DNA of 32,023 nt from a virus (lineage: Duplodnaviria > Caudoviricetes): positions 1 to 32,023 of IMG/VR virus record IMGVR_UViG_3300048599_000029. The stretch is one strand, 5' to 3'. A model generated the notes under the pieces. That model did no database searches. It was not told the origin of the DNA and was given only the letters and a program-made list of their open reading frames with translations. Positions 1,338 through 28,315 of this stretch are shown one piece after another; the stretch's first letter is position 1, and each line of letters opens with the position of its first letter. The position numbers were made by a program, and so were the translations under genes.

Positions 1338-4300
1338 TAGATTCCACCTCCCGGGAGTGCGTAGCGGACGGCGCCCGCCTCGGCTGCGAGGCTGGCCTGA
1401 ACGATCGCCGAGACCGGCTTGCCGTCCACCAGCAGCGTTAGGGAGAGCCGGCTGAACGCCGCAGCGAGATCCGCAGCGCTGAACCCGCCCGAGCCGATCG
1501 CCTGCTGCGTCTGCGACGCGGTGAGGATCACGCCCGACACGGCCGGCCGGAACAGCTCGATGCCCTGCTCGTTGACCTGGTACAGCTCGCCGGCGTACAC
1601 CGGGCCACCGACGGCCTTCTTCTTCGGCTTCGCCTTGGTCGTGACCGACGTGCCGACCACGACCTTGCCGAGCGCGGAAGCGAGCGAGCCGGCCAGTTGC
1701 TCACCGAGCGAGGCCAGCGACCCACCTAGGGTGTCCACGACGCCCTTGGCTGCCGCCAGCCCACCCTGGTAGGCGGAGTCCGTCACGAACTCGGCCGCAC
1801 CCTTGCTGTACGCGGTCAGCTGGTCGTAGGCCGAGTTCATCAGGCCGATCTGCGAGTTGTCCTGCAGGTACATGTCGGCGATCGAGATGGCCTCATTCAC
1901 GTCCGAGCCAGCGACCGAGGCGATCTCCTGCAGGAACGCGGTGTTCGCGCCCAGCCGCTGCAGCTGGCCCAGCTTGGTGGCCAGTGTGCCGAGCTTGGCC
2001 GCCTCCGCAGACTTCCGCGCCGTGATCGACCCGGCGGTCGCGTCCGCCCCGGTTGTCTCCGTCTCGTACCAGATGTTCCCGTTCGCATCCGACCGCATCA
2101 CGTCGGTCGAGGTGAGCGTTGATTGGGCGAGATCAGCCAACGACGAGCCCGCGCGCGACAGGTTGCTGTAGACGTCGTCGTAGATGCCCTGGACCGTGTC
2201 CAGGGTCGACTTCGCCTCGTTGAGTTGCGAGGTCAGCGAGCCGAGCGTCTTTTCGTACGACAGTGCCGCCGACTTCAGCTTGGCGCGGGCCGCCTTCGAC
2301 AGGGCGGAGTTGTCGGCCCAATCCAGCATGGTGTCGACCTGCGAGAGTCCGGATCCGGACGCCACGTCGGACGGGATTGTGCCGCGGCGCACCCACGTCT
2401 GGAGCTCGGCGAGCAGCGAGGCGCGCGCCTCTGCGTCGGCCTTAGCCTGGGCCTTCCGCTTCTTCGCGGCACCGCCCCCTGCGTAATGCTCGACCGCGCC
2501 GCCGTCCGCGAACCGGTAGACGCCGGCGTGTAGGCCGCGGCGGAACCGGTACACCTCAGCCTGCCCGCCCATCTGGAGGACGTCGGCGGCGGTGAGCACG
2601 TGCTCGCCATTCGACAGCTTCGCGTCGATCGAGTCCGAGGTCGCCGTTCCCGCACCCCACACCGCGCCGCCGCCGGCCAGCTTCGGGCCACCCTGCCGCT
2701 TGGTGTTGAAGTGCAGAACCCACTCGTCCTGCATGAGCTTCGGGTAGATCTTCGGGTACTTGTCGGCGAGCTTGGCCTTCTCCCAGTCCTGTATGCCGCC
2801 ACGGTTCAGCAGCGACTCGATCCACGCCTCAGCGGTGTCCCCGTCGATCTTGTCGAGGGCTTCATACGCGCCGTCGATTCCGTCGCTGTCGAATGCCGAC
2901 AGCACCCGGGTCTGCGCCGACTTCGGCAGTCCCTTGATCGAGGCCTTGAGGCTGTCGAGTTGGGTCGATGCGAGGCCCGCACCTGTCACCGACATATCGG
3001 TGTTGACCGATACCGGGACGAGTCCGTACTCGGCGATCATCGACGAGATCGCGGTCTCGGTGAATCCCATCTGCCGCGCCTGATCCGCAAACGCTTTGCG
3101 GCCGTCTTCCATCGCAGTGTTCACGGCCTTCTGGCCCTTGCGCTGCTCGAGCAGCTTCTGGGTGTGCGCGATCGTCGTGGACGCGATCTTGTCCAGCGTC
3201 GTCTGCGCCTCGCGGCCAGCCTTCGTGTCGAGGTCAGTCAGGTCCTTCTTGTTCTTCGTCTCCTTGACGAGCTTGCGCGTCGCGGCCGCAGTGTCGTCGA
3301 GCATCGCCTTATAGCCGATCGTGGAACCGGACAAGGCAAGCGCTTGGTTAGCCGACTCCCACAGAGCCTTCGCATAGTCGGAAATCGAAGCCGTCGCGCC
3401 AATGGCGGCCTGCTGCGTGTCCGCCAGCTTGTCGACCAGTTCAGGATGGGCGGCCGCCGCCAGCTTGACCGCCGTGGGCACCTTGCCCGACATCCAGTCG
3501 GCGTACTCCTTCGTGGTCAGGCCGGTCTCGCCGAGCTGAACCGCGGTGGACTGGAGCGACGCCTTGTACTCGGGGAACAGCTTGATCAGGTCGTCCATGC
3601 TCACGCCCTGCGCCTCCGCGCCCTCGCGGATCTTCGCGAACGCAGTCTGCGCCTGGGTGGAGTCCATCGCGGCAAGCGACTGATCCAACTTGTTGGTCTG
3701 ATCCTTGAGTTCCGTGATCGCCGTCTTCGACCCGGCGAGGCCTGCGATGGTCTGCTGAAGGCCGGACGTGAAGTTCCCCCAGCCAGACGAAGCGTCCGCC
3801 ACCTGCTTGATCGCGTCTCCGAAGCCCTTGGCCTGAGACGTGCCGGCCTCCCACAAGAAGAAGCGGCCCTGCACCTTGCCGAACTCGGTGTCGAGCTTCG
3901 CCAAGCCGTGCTCGCCGGCGTCCGCTGCGGCGGCACCCATGTCGCCCAGCGACCCGGACGCCTTGTCGATGCCGTCCTGGATCGACGAGCCGATGATCGA
4001 CACGACCTGCAGCGCGGCCAGGGCGATCGCCGTGCGTCGGGCAGCCTTGCCCACCTTGTCGATCCCCGACGCCACCTTCGGATGCTCTTGGCCGAGCGCC
4101 TCCATGCCGGTGCGGTAGTCCGACCAGGCGACAGCCCCCTTGGCGACCAGCGACGTGCCAATCATGAGCACGCCCCCAAGCGCCGTCAGCGAGGCTGCCC
4201 CGGTGAGTACGGGCGCAGGCAGTTCGCCGATGACGTTCACCAGACCGGTGGCGTTCTGGGTCATGCCGCGCAGGGCGTCGTTCAGGCCCGAGCCGGACTG

Positions 4301-22034: not shown

Positions 22035-22189
22035 GGGAGCACCTCCAGTCGCATCGTGGTGGCGGTTCTGAGTAGCCTCTCGGCGCGTCTGCGGTCGGCG
22101 TCCGTCCACTGGGTTGATCGCCAGAACGCGAGGGCGGATTCGAGGTCGCCGGCGGCGAGGGCGTGGAGCAGCTGCTCGTAGCGGGTCAT
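22031..22189 (-). CDS. Hypothetical protein (52 aa)
   Basis: ATGA and GTGA overlaps at its two ends. Confidence 0.55.
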   Translation of the reverse strand: MTRYEQLLHALAAGDLESALAFWRSTQWTDADRRRAERLLRTATTMRLEVLP

Positions 22190-23748
22190 GCTGCGACATC
22201 CGATCCGTGCAGGCACTCGTACAGCCGCTCGCCGAGGAACTGGCCGACTGGCGGGGAGACAGCGTTGCCGTAGCCGTCGACCCGGTCACGTTCGGAGCCC
22301 CACACGACGAACGTGCCCGGATGGTCGGGGAAGTCGACGTCGAAACCGCAGCCGCGGCCGATCTCGTGGGAGCCGAGCATTCGGAAGTAGCAGTCGTCGA
22401 GGGTGAGGTCGGCGAGCATGGCGCGCCACTCGGCGGCCAGGAGGGCGGTAGTGTCCCGGCTGGTCGATCCGGGATGCTCGTAGCTGTTCGCGGTCTGCAT
22501 GATCGCCCCCGTGGTGAGCAGGGCAGCCTCTTGCTGGCCGGTCTGCGTCGCGAGTGGCTCGGACGGGTTCCGTTCCGCGCCGCGGGTTGCTTTCGCGGGC
22601 ATGATCATGGCCGACAGCAGCGCAGTCTCCTGCTGCGCGGTCTGGGTCGGCATCGGATCGGTCACAGGCTTTCCCGTGGTGTGCTCGCCGCGGCGGGTGA
22701 TGGGCATGAGGACGGCCGGGAAGTCGGCGAACCGCTGGCGGCAGCGTTCAGCCCTCGCCATGGTTGCGGGGGCGAGCGCCTTCTTCCGGTCCCCGATCCG
22801 GGTGCCAAGGTTCGTCAGGTCGAGCGCATACAGCGACGGCGCGAACTCGGGCACAACCTCGGAATGGCAGGTGCGGCAGCGGTACACATACTGCTTGCCC
22901 CAGCGGACCGACCCGGTCGGCGGGACGCCGGTCTTCCAGGTCCAGCGGGCCTCGTCAACCGTCCCGCACTTCTGGCACAGGGCGAGCGGGCGGTGCTCTA
23001 GATCGGGAGTGGGCAGGGCGGCGTCCCACATGCAGATGTACAGCCGGTCCCGCGACTGCGGCACCCCGAAGAACATCGAGTTGAGGTACAGCTCGCGGTA
23101 GCGGTAGCCGAGCTTGGTGAACTCGCGCAGCCACCAGCGGTAGGTGGACCCGTCGCCGACCTTGCGGCGTCCGGGCAGGGCGTAGCCCCACGACTGGAGC
23201 TCGGTGGTGCATTCGATGAGGATCAGGCGGGGGTGATGCTTGCCGGCGTACTGGAGGACGCAGGTGGCGGTGGCCCGGTCTCGTTCGGAGCGGGTGACCC
23301 GCTCCTCCCAGTCCGGGTCGTCCATGTCGAACAGCGACAGCCCGTCTTGGTAGGCCTTCTGGGTGTTCGCCTGGGAGTGGTTGACACAGGACACCCCGGC
23401 GACGAGCAGGTCGGCGTAGGGCAGGTCGGTTGCGGAGTGATAGTCGGCGGCGTCCGGGTCCACCAGGTCGGCGATCCAGTGCTCGACCTCGGGGTGGTTG
23501 GCTTCGTGGACCTCGACCTTGTACCGGTTGTGGTTCGCGGCCATGATCATCGTGAAGCCGGCGATCTTGATGCCGAGCGTCAGCCCGCCGAACCCGGAGA
23601 ACATGTCCAGCGCGGTGTAGCCGTCGTGCCGATAGTTGCGCTTGTGGATGGCGGGCCGGTGTTCGGCGGTCCGGGTGAACGGCGAGCCACCAGGCTTCGC
23701 GGCGCGGCGCGGACCGGCAGCGCGACGGGGCTTGTCCTTGACGATCAC
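22186..23748 (-). CDS. DNA cytosine-C5 methyltransferase
   Basis: GTG at 23748 after GGAGG. Motif I DMFSGFGG, motif IV AGVSCVNHS, motif VI IECTTE, motif VIII VPQSRDRLY, motif X GNAVSPPV. Confidence 0.88.
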   Translation of the reverse strand: MIVKDKPRRAAGPRRAAKPGGSPFTRTAEHRPAIHKRNYRHDGYTALDMFSGFGGLTLGIKIAGFTMIMAANHNRYKVEVHEANHPEVEHWIADLVDPDAADYHSATDLPYADLLVAGVSCVNHSQANTQKAYQDGLSLFDMDDPDWEERVTRSERDRATATCVLQYAGKHHPRLILIECTTELQSWGYALPGRRKVGDGSTYRWWLREFTKLGYRYRELYLNSMFFGVPQSRDRLYICMWDAALPTPDLEHRPLALCQKCGTVDEARWTWKTGVPPTGSVRWGKQYVYRCRTCHSEVVPEFAPSLYALDLTNLGTRIGDRKKALAPATMARAERCRQRFADFPAVLMPITRRGEHTTGKPVTDPMPTQTAQQETALLSAMIMPAKATRGAERNPSEPLATQTGQQEAALLTTGAIMQTANSYEHPGSTSRDTTALLAAEWRAMLADLTLDDCYFRMLGSHEIGRGCGFDVDFPDHPGTFVVWGSERDRVDGYGNAVSPPVGQFLGERLYECLHGSDVAA

Positions 23749-23776
23749 CGCCGCCTCCGTCCGGCCATGCTGACGT

Positions 23777-24157
23777 TCATGCACGGCGGAGAGTTGCGCT
23801 TTTGGCCTCAGCGACCATCTGCTCCCAATCGCCGCGGACGCCCGCGGGCAGATCGAACACGACCACTTCGCCCTCGACCACCACGGGCGGCACGTTCGCG
23901 GCGATGATCGCCAGGACGTCTTCGCTCTCCATCCATCCCTCGGTGGGGTCGTCGCCGTTCGCGATCGGCGCCAGCTCGGGGCAACCCTCGGGCCAGTCGC
24001 AGTAGTCGGTCGGCCAGCCGGGCTCGCCGACCTGCAGCGTCCAGACGCCATGGCGGGCACGGAAGTAGAACGGGCGATCGCTCTCGGTGTATCGGCCCGT
24101 GGCCTGGGTCGGGCAGGCTCCGCCGATGTCCTCGACGATGAATGCGTCCGCGCTCAT
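23777..24157 (-). CDS. Hypothetical phage protein (126 aa)
   Basis: ATG at 24157 in an ATGA overlap; GACPTQATG...PFYFRARHG. Confidence 0.7.
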   Translation of the reverse strand: MSADAFIVEDIGGACPTQATGRYTESDRPFYFRARHGVWTLQVGEPGWPTDYCDWPEGCPELAPIANGDDPTEGWMESEDVLAIIAANVPPVVVEGEVVVFDLPAGVRGDWEQMVAEAKSATLRRA

Positions 24158-24294
24158 GGCTGTGTCCTTCGGTGCTGGTTGAGGTGGGTCTGCCGCATCG
24201 ACTCGGCGGCAGCGGGGGTGGTGGCGGTGCCGAGCCAGGGGCAGTGTGGGCAGGAGGCGGGCCACATGCCGGTGGGCGTGGGGGTGGCGGTCAT
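24154..24294 (-). CDS. C2H2-like microprotein (46 aa)
   Basis: ATGA-coupled at both ends; CPHC...HLNQH. Confidence 0.55.
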   Translation of the reverse strand: MTATPTPTGMWPASCPHCPWLGTATTPAAAESMRQTHLNQHRRTQP

Positions 24295-27200
24295 GAGGCG
24301 AGCCCTTCGAGGTCGAACAGGGTGGGCATGCCTTGGCTGCGCTCCTCGGCCTCGAGGTACTTGACGGAGTCGAGCCAGTAGCCAGGGTTGAGCTCGACGC
24401 CCTGGCCGCGACGGCCCATGCGGAGCGCCATCATGGGAACGGTGCCGAGTCCCGCGAACGGGTCGAACACAAGTTCGCCGGTGTTGGAGTACCGGCGGAT
24501 CAGGCGCTCGACGATGTCGAACTGCAGGGGGCATACGTGCAGGACCTGGGCGCGGTGGGATTGCTCGCCGTTGAGGGTTCTCATCCGATTCACGTCGTGC
24601 CAGACGTCCTCGTGCCAAGATCCGGGGGCCAAGCTCATGAAGGTCGCCGGGAGGGCCCCCCGGGCCTCCATCTGCTCGCCGATCCGGACATGGCTCTCGT
24701 AGTCGTAGACCTGCTGCAGGGTCTGCTCGGTGAACAGCCGTGAGCGATCTTCGACCGACAGCGCGGCGAGTTCGTCTGGGGTGAGCATCCGGTCGCCGGA
24801 GGAGCGCCAGAACGCGTGCGCGTCGATCTGCCAGCGAGCGCGGGTGTAGTCGGCCTTGTCCTTTGTGACGGGGGTGTCGGCGTAGCCGCGGGTGAGGTCG
24901 GTCTGGGGCTTGCGGAAGAGCAGGATGTACTCGGGGCAGCCGACGCCCATCTTGGTGGAGTCCTTCGAGTTCTCTGTCCAGCCGAGCCGATACGTCTGGT
25001 TGTTCTCCCGGACGACGTCGGTGACGACGGTGATCATGCCGACCTTCTTGAAGCCGTGCTTCTCGGCGTGGAAGACCGCCTCCTCGTGGAAGTTGTCTAC
25101 GGTCGGGAAGCCGAGCCCGGTCACGTTGCCGAACAGGACGCGGTCCTTGACGTGGCAGGCGTAGATCCGGCCGGGGGCGAGCACTCGGTACAGCTCGGGG
25201 GTCAGGTAGTCCATCTGCGCCCAGAAGTGCTCGTTGTTGTCGGTGTGGCCGAAGTCGTTGTAGCTGGGGGTGTACTCGTAGTGGTTCGCGAACGGGATCG
25301 AGGTGACGATCAGGTCGACCGAGTCCGACGACATCGAGGCGGTCTCGGGGACGCAGTCGTTGTTCGCGAGCAGCCAGCCGGCGCCTGACGCCTCCACGCG
25401 CTCGATGCCGAGCGAGCGTTCCAGCGCTGCGGCGATGTCGGCGCGGGCAAGTCCGTACTCCCGGATGATGTCGGTCATGGTGGCGGTCAACTCCTTGTGC
25501 TTGGCCCACTTCGCGCGGATCGTCTGGACGACCTCGCGCTCGGTGTCGGTGTGGATGAGGTGCACTTCGCAGGTCCGGGACTGGCCGAACCGCTGCACCC
25601 GGTGGATGGACTGGATGAGGTCGTTGAACTTGAACGTGAGCCCGACGTAGATGGCCTTGTTGCACTGCTGGAAGTTCATGCCCTGGCCGAGCATGACCGG
25701 CTTGCCGATCAGCGCGACGGTCTCGCGGTCGCGCCACTGGCCGATGCGCCGCTCAACCTCGTCCGGGTCGAGTGACCCGTACACCGACGAGTAGCTGATG
25801 CCGCGCGCCCGGAGCAGATGCTCGAGCGCGGCCTGTTCGGCGTTCAGGTCGCACCACAGGATCACCTGGTCGAGGTCGTCCCCGTAGCTGTCGAGGATGG
25901 CGCCAACTTCGGCGACCCGTTCGGCGATCGACTCGCGCTTCTCCCGGGCCGCGTCCGGCAGTCCCATCGACACGCCCCGGAACAGGTGCCCTTGCCCGTC
26001 GCGGTCGGTTGGGGTGTCTCCCGGGTTGAACAGCACCTCGTGCCATTCGAGGTCGAGTTCGGGAAGTTCGTAGCCGTCGTCCTCACATGGGCAGGGTTCG
26101 CCGGCGTGGTCGGCGATTGTTCGCCTGCTCTGCGCGGGTCGCCCATCGGCAGTTACCGGGCTCGTAGTTCCCGTCGTTGTCGATGCGGTCGAGGGTGTAT
26201 CCGTCGGCCGGCTCTCCCATGTCGGCGAGGAAGTTGCTGAAGGTGCGCCAGCGCTCGCAGACGGCGATCCCGCGGCCGCCGTAGTCTGCCCAGTTCTTGT
26301 GGTTGGGTCGGCGGCAGCGGTCGAGCATCCCGAGCCAGATGCGGTGGACGCGGGTGCGGTTTCGTCCGTGAGGGGGGCGAAGGCAGCCGCAGCTGCGCGC
26401 ACGTCCGCTCCTGAGGTGGTTGGACGTGGCGATGCGCTCGGCGCCGCAATCGCAGCGACATAGCCAGCCGCCGGTGCGTCCTGGTCCGGGCTGCCAAGTG
26501 ACGGCGACAAGACGGCCGAAGCGCTGGCCTTGGAGGTCGAGATGGGGTCGTGGCATGTGCACCTACAGAGGTCGGAGGGTCGTTGCAGGAAGATGGCCCA
26601 CGAGTTCATCCACAGGAAGAACTCGTCCCGCTTGTGCGGGTAGAGCGTGAGGTTGTTCGCCTGGGTGGAGTCGCGCTGGAAGAACCGGGTGAGCGCGGCG
26701 CCGGTGTCCATGATGTCGAGGTAGCCGGCGTAGTGGATGAGTTCCTTGTGCCGGTTCGGGCTGGGCGTGGCGGTGGCGACGAAGCGGTACGGGATGCTGT
26801 CGAACAGCGGCAGGAACTCCTGGTAGGTCTTGGAGCCGAACGAGCGGAGCACGGACGCTTCGTCGAGGCTGACCGCGGTGAAGGCGTCGACGTCGAGCTT
26901 CCCGTCGCGGACCGACTCGTAGTTGGTGATGTACAGGCCGTCGCCGTCGATCTGTTCGGTGCGACGGATGAACCTCAACTCGATGTCGAGCTTGATGGCA
27001 TCCTTGGCGAACTCGATGCGGACGCCGAGCGGGCACACGATCAGGGCCCGGCCGCCTTCGCGGGCGAGGATCAGCCGCAGGATTTCGAGCTGCATGAAGC
27101 TCTTGCCGAGCCCGAACGCGGCGAAGATTGCGCGCCGTCCGCCTTCGACGGCCCACTTGACGATCGCCTTCTGGTGGGGTTTGAGCTTGGGGTTGATCTG

Positions 27201-27299
27201 GTGCGGGTCGCACGCGAAGCCGTACCGCTGGGCGATCGGCTTCTTGGCGCGCAGCAGGGCCTCGTATCCGGCGAGGTCGCCGTGGAGTACTGCGGTCAT
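24291..27299 (-). CDS. SNF2-like helicase / amino (N4-C or N6-A) DNA methyltransferase fusion with an in-frame insert
   Basis: Start MTAVLHG at 27299. Helicase motifs [26 protein letters not shown] and [11 protein letters not shown]. MTase motifs VTSIPF then FDPFAGLGT (beta order). About 161 aa of low-complexity sequence interrupts the helicase. Confidence 0.9.
26083..26556 (-). CDS. HNH homing-type endonuclease nested out of frame in the helicase-methylase gene
   Basis: [12 protein letters not shown]...WLCRCDCG...[11 protein letters not shown]...WLGMLDRC...[12 protein letters not shown]...FLADMG...[20 protein letters not shown]...QANN, a full-length recognisable phage HNH. Confidence 0.9.
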
Positions 27300-27325
27300 G
27301 GTCTCTCTGGTCTCTCGGGTATGGC

Positions 27326-27361
27326 GAAGGCCCCCGCCACTGCTGTGGGTCGGGGGCCTTC
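27326..27361. terminator. Stem-loop upstream of the helicase-methylase gene
   Basis: 11-bp inverted repeat GAAGGCCCCCG / CGGGGGCCTTC with an inner CCAC/GTGG stem, in an intergenic gap. Confidence 0.6.
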
Positions 27362-27369
27362 TGTGTTGG

Positions 27370-27606
27370 TCAGATGAGGGCGCCGTCTGGTGGTGGCGGC
27401 TTGGGTCGGCAGTCAGGGCACAGGTCGCGGGTGCCGGGATCGTTGGACCTCTTGGTGGGGTGCTGGCCGCCGGCGAGGTACGCGACGAGCCAGCCGTGCC
27501 GTTCGGCTTCGCCTCGGGCGCCGTGGCCGGTGTGGTGAACGCTGTGGAAGCGTCGCCGGCCGCAGGCGTCACAGACGACCTCGATGCCGCGGTGTGCGAG
27601 GCTCAC
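27370..27606 (-). CDS. Zn-ribbon small protein (78 aa)
   Basis: GTG at 27606 in a GTGA overlap; CDACG...GW...DLCPDC. Confidence 0.65.
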   Translation of the reverse strand: MSLAHRGIEVVCDACGRRRFHSVHHTGHGARGEAERHGWLVAYLAGGQHPTKRSNDPGTRDLCPDCRPKPPPPDGALI

Positions 27607-27992
27607 AGCGGCTCCCCGGTGAACGTGAGCGTGATCCGGTAGAAGCCGGGTTTGCCGCTCGGTTCGCCGCGGCGGTAGGTGAGGTCGCGGAGGTGGTCGG
27701 CGTCGTCGTCGGGCAGGAGGCCAGCGTCGACGCAGCCGTCGATCATGGCCTTCACGGTGGGCGAGGCGTTCGCGGGATCCTGCCGCCGCCGGGTCGGATA
27801 GTGGATGGTGGCGAGCACGTCGGCGCGCCGGAACCTGACGCCCTCGGTGTGGATCGCGTCGAGGGCGAGCACCCGGGCGTGCCAGCGGAGCACCTTCGTC
27901 CGGCTGGCCCGTTTCGCCCAATGCTCGCGCCCGTTCGCGGTCAGCCACAGCGACGCGGGCACGTCCTGGGTGATCATCACGGAAGCGGTCAC
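27603..27992 (-). CDS. RusA-like Holliday junction resolvase
   Basis: GTG at 27992; RRQDPANASPTVKAMIDGCVDAGLLPDDD motif. Confidence 0.8.
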   Translation of the reverse strand: MTASVMITQDVPASLWLTANGREHWAKRASRTKVLRWHARVLALDAIHTEGVRFRRADVLATIHYPTRRRQDPANASPTVKAMIDGCVDAGLLPDDDADHLRDLTYRRGEPSGKPGFYRITLTFTGEPL

Positions 27993-28315
27993 GGCCGCGC
28001 CCCTGCGATCGCGAGCCATTCGTCGACGGGCCGCACGGGCAGGCCGAGCATCCCGGCGGTCTGCACTTCCCAGCGCGCGCCGCCCGAGTTCCACCAGCCT
28101 TCGAGGACGGCGACGCCGTCACAGCGGAGCAACTGGTCGAGGCCGGCGCGCAGGTACCAGTGGTAGTCGTGGGCGTCCTCTTCGCTCGGGGTGGCGTTGT
28201 CGGCGGGGTTCTCGACGTCGAACCCGGCGACGCGGAGTTCGCCGGCGGCGTAGTTGAACGCGGGCAGGTTGAACTCGGGCAGGCCGGTCATGGGGCCGGC
28301 GACATACAGCCGCAT
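27989..28315 (-). CDS. DUF4406-like (nucleoside deoxyribosyltransferase-fold) protein
   Basis: MRLYVAGPMTGLPEFNLPAF...NPA...CDGVAVLEGWWNSGGARWE. Confidence 0.85.
   Translation of the reverse strand: MRLYVAGPMTGLPEFNLPAFNYAAGELRVAGFDVENPADNATPSEEDAHDYHWYLRAGLDQLLRCDGVAVLEGWWNSGGARWEVQTAGMLGLPVRPVDEWLAIAGARP

Follow-up and report, generated by a model that had tools for sequence, protein, structure and literature searches.

Arsenault, Gosselin and Gogarten (2025; PMC11855218) described an insertion in mycobacteriophage Pacc40 gp60 alongside the ShiLan domain; in the accessible part of their paper no intron or intein is attributed to these inserts, which are proposed to persist as a loop of the protein. 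For the ShiLan domain proper, the paper gives a 202-amino-acid (aa) insert that contains an HNH of 195 aa and sits in another methylase family. We analyzed an insert of this kind in a complete virus record of 32,023 nucleotides (nt), IMG/VR record IMGVR_UViG_3300048599_000029, referred to here as the window. The interrupted gene, a single open frame of 1002 aa (24291..27299, minus strand), codes for a SNF2-type helicase fused to an N4/N6 DNA methylase. An in-frame insert of 483 nt, or 161 stop-free codons (26085..26567, minus strand; host aa 245-405), lies between PSDL, which ends at 26568, and EDDGYELP, which starts at 26084. The same nucleotides encode in the -1 frame a nested HNH-like endonuclease of 157 aa (26083..26556, minus strand; ATG at 26556, TGA at 26085-26083). 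An earlier note made from the sequence of the window had given the insert and the nested open reading frame (ORF), and we confirmed the coordinates of both. Pacc40 gp60 shares with the window the host family, the site, the frame offset, a 70.7% identical nuclease and a stop-free host frame. The comparison was made to this Pacc40 gp60 form. The window element belongs to the Pacc40/ShiLan kind, and the overprinted layout pointed out in the earlier note had been published for the same element at the same site (Pacc40 gp60; PMC11855218). The accessible part of that paper has one example at this site and no mention of Cys/His ends in the host frame or of split or mini alleles. What is new is a Cys/His motif at the host-frame ends of the insert, which we refer to as the clasp, together with its read-through, mini and split forms. 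The allele series at the site (empty, read-through, nuclease-free mini and split) is likewise new here. We conclude that this is probably a laterally spreading element with a putative homing nuclease in the -1 frame, carried as a likely unspliced, disordered loop of the helicase-methylase that is pinned by likely metal-binding Cys/His ends.

Three other systems are comparable. In Aeh1 nrdA, a nuclease insertion leaves short essential tails on the protein halves, and function is restored without splicing (PMC3045599; review PMC2988022). The split Aeh1 genes with their tails are closest to the split alleles L168 and L185 described below. Charge is the proposed mode of action of the Aeh1 tails, which have no database matches, and the accessible part of the report has no mention of zinc or metal (PMC3045599). 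Here, one Cys/His motif recurs across many lineages, in split, read-through and mini forms. Inteins are alike in having four allele states at one conserved ATPase site, a nuclease in another frame and a Cys start (bioRxiv 10.1101/2025.01.02.630785, accessible part). Unlike inteins, the insert analyzed here has no splicing domain, no terminal His-Asn and no C/S/T following it, and the clasp module of 12-22 residues would stay as part of the protein. In group I introns with HNH ORFs a nuclease ORF likewise lies in a phage gene at a conserved site, but the region of the insert (24000-28000) lacks an Rfam match and the host frame is open. A group I or II intron was rejected (no Rfam match in 24000-28000, no room for a ribozyme core), as was an intein (no splicing domain, no terminal His-Asn). 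A broader proposal sees in the Cys/His metal clasp of 12-22 residues a mobile counterpart of the intein that works free of splicing, lets unrelated homing nucleases interrupt an ATPase and passes through the same allele cycle (empty, full read-through, split in trans and mini); we advance it tentatively, with slightly less than even confidence.

The insert sits at one conserved site between the two helicase lobes. Its host-frame composition is dominated by Ala (36), Thr (25), Ser (25) and Pro (19), and the host-frame sequence has no PHROG family match. The earlier note had placed a flexible in-frame insert in this linker, and the AlphaFold2 model agrees, with the insert predicted to be disordered (predicted local distance difference test score, pLDDT, below 50 at host aa 253-392 and 396-400; model numbering +11). 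In the same model, built with 92 sequences, the lobes are confident, and the blocks holding the two Cys/His motifs have pLDDT values of 71 and 78; a single-sequence fold of host aa 134-610 was uninformative (pLDDT 34). The empty allele reads PSDL-G-[FYHC]-[SPD]-D-[ED]-GY. This five-residue form occurs in 90 of 118 loci (72 distinct, all 72 with the Gly), and forms of 7-8 residues occur in 12. The PSDLG-x-x-D-x-GY form given in the earlier note was found, but its junction had to be corrected, since the insert displaces the invariant Gly and one or two further residues and the net gain at the site is 477 nt (492 versus 15 nt between PSDx and GY). Two contigs of public run X1, possibly the source sample, span the two junctions with 0 differences. 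A second allele was found in one other study (runs X2-X5), with both junctions spanned by two overlapping contigs. The contig joints listed from public runs (contigs only) included no clean joint across the insert, and the host-frame insert used as a query found no relative in viral contigs or plasmids.

We collected nine same-site read-through alleles with DNA (the window, Pacc40, L083, L088, L165, L247, L289, L298 and L316/L319), and all nine have insert lengths that are multiples of 3 and are stop-free, which is the check on filled alleles that the earlier note had proposed. L083 is from a Phenylobacterium metagenome-assembled genome (MAG) and L088 from an Amaricoccus MAG. Searches in the nuclease frame or for a single junction, and not openness, brought up the eight alleles besides the window; five more that are known as proteins only (P0002, P0003, P0126, P0127 and P0129) are open by the manner of finding. 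The open frame is significant because only 1 of 148 other members of the nuclease family is stop-free in the corresponding frame (mean 4.8 stops), compared to 9/9 of the same-site alleles. The earlier note had explained the open frame by high GC content at the third codon positions (GC3) of the nuclease. GC3 correlates with fewer stops (rho -0.39), and this cause was ruled out: just one of the 26 relatives with GC3 >= 0.75 is stop-free, with a mean of 3.7 stops. GC3 alone cannot give zero stops, and selection is therefore needed. The probability of an open host frame on recoding was 0.018-0.083 for the four least constrained alleles, values that are not simply multiplied since the alleles are related. 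In all same-clade alleles with DNA the host frame is open, even though its peptide drifts; pairwise identity among 8 alleles averages 60% for the nuclease frame and 38% for the host frame. Differences at the three codon positions of the nuclease amount to 30/27/51% among the 8 alleles, the third being the most variable.

The proposed clasp consists of two short motifs. The 5' half, C-R-C-T-C-H (aa 245-250; 26550..26567, minus strand), overlaps the nuclease start, and the 3' half, H-A-G-E-P-C-P-C (aa 398-405; 26085..26108, minus strand), is a reduced form of the C-x-x-C-x-C of most relatives. The 5' motif C-x-[CH]-x-C-H was present in 8/8 read-through alleles, the ninth (L316/L319) having C-x-C only; the 3' motif C-x-C was present in 9/9 read-through alleles with DNA, often as C-x-x-C-x-C. 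At the sequence level, at least C-x-[CH] and C-x-C are found in all nine read-through and all five mini alleles, as candidate metal ligands. The typical host-frame motif, C-x-C-x-C-H ... C-x-x-C-x-C, occurs in nearly all non-empty alleles, and it recurs in the mini alleles and at the ends of N-half proteins. Metal is likely bound by both Cys/His ends, which would thereby keep the parts of the interrupted helicase together with no splicing involved. The conserved module at the host-frame ends does not fit the claim of the earlier note that the insert is merely a flexible linker. Literature searches of open-access full text showed, among the papers listed, no description of a Cys/His clasp at such inserts; the supplements and GitHub alignments of PMC11855218 may show the cysteines. 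It is conceivable that the frame is held open only for the downstream methylase, with the helicase crippled and the cysteines mere by-products of the overlap with the nuclease start, ribosome-binding site and stop. The start ATG-CC does force a host TGC, and the TGA/TAA overlaps a host codon ending in T; moreover, the methylase with the ShiLan domain, which is of a different family, is noted as dispensable by Arsenault et al. (PMC11855218, accessible part). Nevertheless, in 5/8 read-through alleles 2-3 of the 3' Cys codons fall entirely past the nuclease stop, the motif persists without the nuclease and with an unrelated one, and 15 of 18 listed changes of the second allele in its flank in the C-terminal helicase lobe (lobe 2) are synonymous. 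We regard such a crippled helicase as a doubtful explanation, on a par with or slightly behind the native-loop origin considered below.

Mini alleles without the nuclease were found at five loci (L286, L288, L290, L292 and L318). The host-frame sequence of L286 is CCCGCHADGPVDCERCDC; that of L318, which differs in form and is absent from the tree, is CLCRERGVVCKC. The other four mini alleles make up one group on the host tree. Among 120 listed matches (of 792) to the N-half query, 17 proteins end 7-18 aa after PSDx in a Cys-led tail, which is C-x-C-x-C-H in 12 of them. Six of the N-half proteins are on contigs of 7.7-60 kb and several others on contigs of approximately 1 kb; one of the 17 is MBM0235893.1 from Micromonospora sp. 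ATA32. Two further proteins, P0217 and P0222, carry M-S-C-D-K-C-R-C-D-[DE]-GY near their starts. The N-half of L168 ends in CLCICHGRQ and a stop, and a GGGAGG and a TGA/ATG overlap lead into an endonuclease VII-like ORF, followed by the contig end. In L185 the host gene is split by a nuclease gene into two ORFs: a one-Cys N-half is followed by a promoter-like site (TTGACA...TAGATT), a helix-turn-helix gene and an endonuclease VII-like gene, and the C-half restarts with M-C-E-K-C behind GGGAG. The endonuclease VII genes of both loci are unrelated to the nested nuclease (phrog_1035 versus phrog_374). Alleles with host-frame stops, which the earlier note would have held against its own idea, do exist at the site and bear partly against it; the two with DNA context carry this different nuclease and look like organised split genes. 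The host gene of the window is one ORF and not split, and there are no host-frame start codons after insert codon 56.

A protein search for split C-halves returned two proteins, both with an empty site; C-half and mini queries of annotated phages (best 40 of 155) and plasmids (4) gave no further clasp allele by coverage; and the junction pattern gave no new match when run against two sets of 401 genomes each, one from the class of G001 and one from that of G002. In one of two allele searches 3 of the 6 matches were unrelated; in the other, 15 of 33 had no host-gene match and 7 of 33 were empty with a single Cys. Short alleles with Cys in place of Gly read PSDL-CYPDT-GY in L300, L310, L323, L325 and L326, and PSD[IV]-CE[ED]YSD[ED]-GY in L301 and L314. 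These single-Cys short alleles are possibly worn-down clasp alleles, or they arose by chance.

We attempted to trace the movement of the insert with two trees. In the nuclease tree, 8/8 tested read-through nucleases fall in one clade among 160 relatives (Shimodaira-Hasegawa-like approximate likelihood ratio test, SH-aLRT, 93). The host tree was built from the 215 residues upstream of the site motif and includes 77 (75+2) of 172 empty alleles; among its 112 rows, a single clade for the 12 read-through hosts was rejected (approximately unbiased, AU, test, p 5e-10). The clasp label requires 24 changes on this tree, at least 10 of them forced by strong branches, and clasp hosts are scattered among empty alleles in a patchy distribution. 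One nuclease clade set against scattered hosts is the pattern expected of homing, and lateral spread of the insert is supported, in line with the invasion of a conserved coding target put forward in the earlier note. A different origin would make the Cys/His loop a native host feature, seen in the mini alleles, in which nucleases landed later, long inserts or a break being tolerable in a loop pinned by metal; the clasp would now travel with them by co-conversion. This origin shares the present-day mechanism of the reading that we favor and differs in where the loop came from. The grouping of four mini alleles on the host tree, meaning that the loop was inherited without a nuclease, speaks for it, as do the two unrelated nuclease families (phrog_374 and phrog_1035) inside the motif, and unrooted change counts are blind to gain versus loss. 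However, clasp and empty alleles are intermingled throughout the host tree, the nearest neighbors of clasp alleles are often empty, the fifth mini allele (L318, outside the tree) is of a different form, and the mini alleles could equally be products of nuclease loss. We consider a native loop unlikely.

Splicing was evaluated along the window and the insert. The rival here is that the insert is removed by an unrecognised RNA or protein splicing reaction or by ribosomal bypass. Inteins begin with Cys, and so does the host-frame insert; in addition, the nuclease family occurs out of frame in intein-like inserts (C...H-N-C) of other genes. The earlier note had reported no signs of RNA or protein splicing, and this held: there was no Rfam intron match at E<=5 in 24000-28000 and no intein Pfam family, and the insert ends in C-P-C followed by E, not in H-N followed by C/S/T. 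Little sequence is left free around the nuclease ORF: 11 nt on its 5' side and 4-31 nt on its 3' side. Precise removal would leave the Gly that is invariant in the five-residue empty alleles (72/72) unrestored, and neither bypass nor RNA splicing would need a stop-free frame. Cryptic splicing is the least likely of the rivals, and we give it very little credence.

The nested ORF matched phrog_374, 'HNH endonuclease', with an E value of 3e-63, and had no Pfam match; its best phage match is the hidden ORF of Pacc40 gp60. The protein has an N-terminal CxC...CxC module followed by a D-R-I-D-N...N-C-R-W...Q-x-x-N core. Its ATG lies 11 nt inside the 5' edge of the insert, and the nuclease ATG is at insert nucleotide 12 in 8/8 alleles. 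A Shine-Dalgarno-like AGGTG is located 3 nt before the nuclease ATG (26560..26564, minus strand; a putative ribosome-binding site). The AGGTG, which we take to be a candidate ribosome-binding site of the nuclease from its match to the anti-Shine-Dalgarno sequence, is present in Pacc40 and L298 as well and is weaker in the other 5 alleles. Leaderless initiation was proposed for the ShiLan domain (PMC11855218, accessible part), unlike the window with its Shine-Dalgarno-like site.

Several observations weigh against the reading that we favor. The host frame of the window is open in 43-65% of synonymous recodings of the nuclease protein, and its open frame taken alone is weak evidence. Two insert-bearing proteins, P0004 and P0128, are broken or cut. 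The clasp is incomplete in places: the 5' end is only C-x-C in L316/L319 and L318, the last Cys is missing from P0127 and P0129 (which end in C-x-x-C), the L185 N-half has one Cys only, and the 3' half of the window is reduced. Through their overlap with the nuclease ATG-CCA, the third Cys and the His in the 5' motif are possibly partly forced. The N-half query contained CRCTCH, which raised the rank of tails of that kind; the 17 N-half proteins and P0217/P0222 are known as proteins only, and no single locus was found with both canonical split halves. The trees came from quick searches and are unrooted, and on the host tree the clasp label shows slight clustering, with 24 changes versus 30 when shuffled. 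A search of PDB sequences with the nuclease gave a single match at E 0.13, which is not meaningful, and no solved relative. The canonical HNH core has the form D-H-x-D...N...N with a catalytic His. At the canonical His position the nested protein has Arg (Arg124), as do all 168 of 168 aligned loci, duplicates counted, and the earlier description of an 'intact HNH' is not supported.

The nested protein could be a DNA-binding factor or an inactive nuclease spread by ordinary recombination. Besides the invariant Arg, the lack of a Pfam or PDB match is in keeping with a non-cutting protein, and Arsenault et al. called the HNH label for Pacc40 less certain (PMC11855218, accessible part). The invariant Arg together with the surrounding D/N/C/W residues nevertheless suggests a conserved variant active site. 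The family also sits in intein-like inserts of terminase-like and polymerase genes, which are usual places for homing nucleases, and the hosts that one clade has reached have N-halves sharing 44-71% identity with that of the window. We consider a non-cutting protein improbable and retain a putative homing nuclease as the preferred reading.

In the mechanism that we propose, the nuclease would be translated from its own ATG behind the AGGTG and would cut or nick the empty allele, and repair would then copy the filled allele. The host frame would be read through the insert, with the disordered loop kept in the helicase-methylase, and selection may hold the host frame open because the whole protein is made. 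The Cys/His ends may bind one or two metal ions, such as zinc, thereby closing the loop, and the clasp would restore the geometry of the replaced G-Y-S segment. It would act in cis in the read-through and mini alleles and in trans in the split genes, and where the nuclease is absent the module would be left as a small loop. The order of the allele states is one that we infer.

The 2025 description left open how the helicase/methylase tolerates a disordered insert of 160 residues and how dual-frame inserts originate. The allele series offers a testable answer, a short junction Cys/His module common to split genes; read-through forms could arise from split genes by loss of host-frame stops, or decay into them. 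Should the module prove to bind metal and to be required for activity, it would extend the Aeh1 tails to a reusable motif and parallel the intein life cycle without splicing chemistry. It would then represent a third way, besides RNA and protein splicing, to keep an insertion from doing harm, and could serve as a natural short tag that links the pieces of split proteins. If the cysteines are idle, the window holds one more copy of a published element. The element is also present in alphaproteobacterial MAG contigs and is not limited to Mycobacterium phages.

The window has a GC content of 67.8% and Pfam matches to portal, major capsid, tape-measure, RecT and C5-methylase genes, with terminase and RusA-like genes by PHROG. 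The helicase-methylase was assigned to phrog_16 and is approximately 70% identical to helicase/methylases of Arthrobacter and Mycobacterium phages. Its N-terminal helicase lobe (aa 1-244; 26568..27299, minus strand), with mostly high pLDDT, ends in the target-site motif PSDL. The C-terminal lobe and methylase domain (aa 406-1002; 24291..26084, minus strand) were delimited by Pfam (PF00271 at aa 477-572, PF01555 at aa 661-974), and the AlphaFold2 model matches Snf2 ATPases, giving the host protein a Snf2-family fold. The second allele (window 25833-26660, runs X2-X5) has 10 differences in the 483 positions of the insert, about 1 in the 93 positions upstream and about 20 in the 252 downstream. 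Neither frame gains a stop from the 10 single-nucleotide differences in the insert. The downstream differences begin 10 nt past the junction, and the two contigs of this allele overlap by just 23-30 nt. The pattern fits one-sided co-conversion.

We also observed the nuclease family in other settings. Its members lie out of frame, using the other alternative frame, within intein-like inserts (C...H-N-C) that keep an open frame. These are found in terminase-like genes (L029/L034/L039 and L055, labeled by inspection) and in DNA polymerase genes (L156 and L163, the latter from Shewanella phage SFCi1). An intein-like insert of this kind spans approximately locus positions 2950-3650 (1057-1680 in L034; 2465-3142 in L163), and the inserts share a terminal motif resembling V-Y-D-L-L-N-C-G-P-R. 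Inteins with an out-of-frame endonuclease VII have been published; the accessible part of that report does not name the phrog_374 family (bioRxiv 10.1101/2025.01.02.630785). Of 150 matches in one further search, most are short shadow-frame ORFs of free-standing nucleases. In P0178 (aa 195-295) and P0199 (aa 200-290), proteins of phrog_2045 with no known function, the shadow peptide of the nuclease family lies mid-protein, a pattern suggestive of a read-through insert in a second family of host genes. P0130 has a shadow-frame peptide of the nuclease family and then a PTLFD tail like the C-terminus of the helicase-methylase; it is possibly another insertion near the 3' end of such a gene. Free-standing relatives of the nuclease adjoin uninterrupted relatives of the host gene or lie within approximately 400 nt of them (L002 2411-3013, Tiff81 gp70; L113, L116 and L084), an arrangement that was noted for Tiff81 and Sashimi in the accessible part of PMC11855218.

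The methylase domain of Pacc40 gp60 carries an intein, whereas the same site is empty in the host gene of the window; this intein-type insert lies at host aa ~920-1260 of Pacc40 gp60 (L001) and reads C-L-A-R-G ... K-N and then C. Directly downstream of the helicase-methylase, the window has a second DNA methylase gene, of the C5 type (22186-24060, minus strand), with an internal C-x-x-C...C-x-x-C segment.

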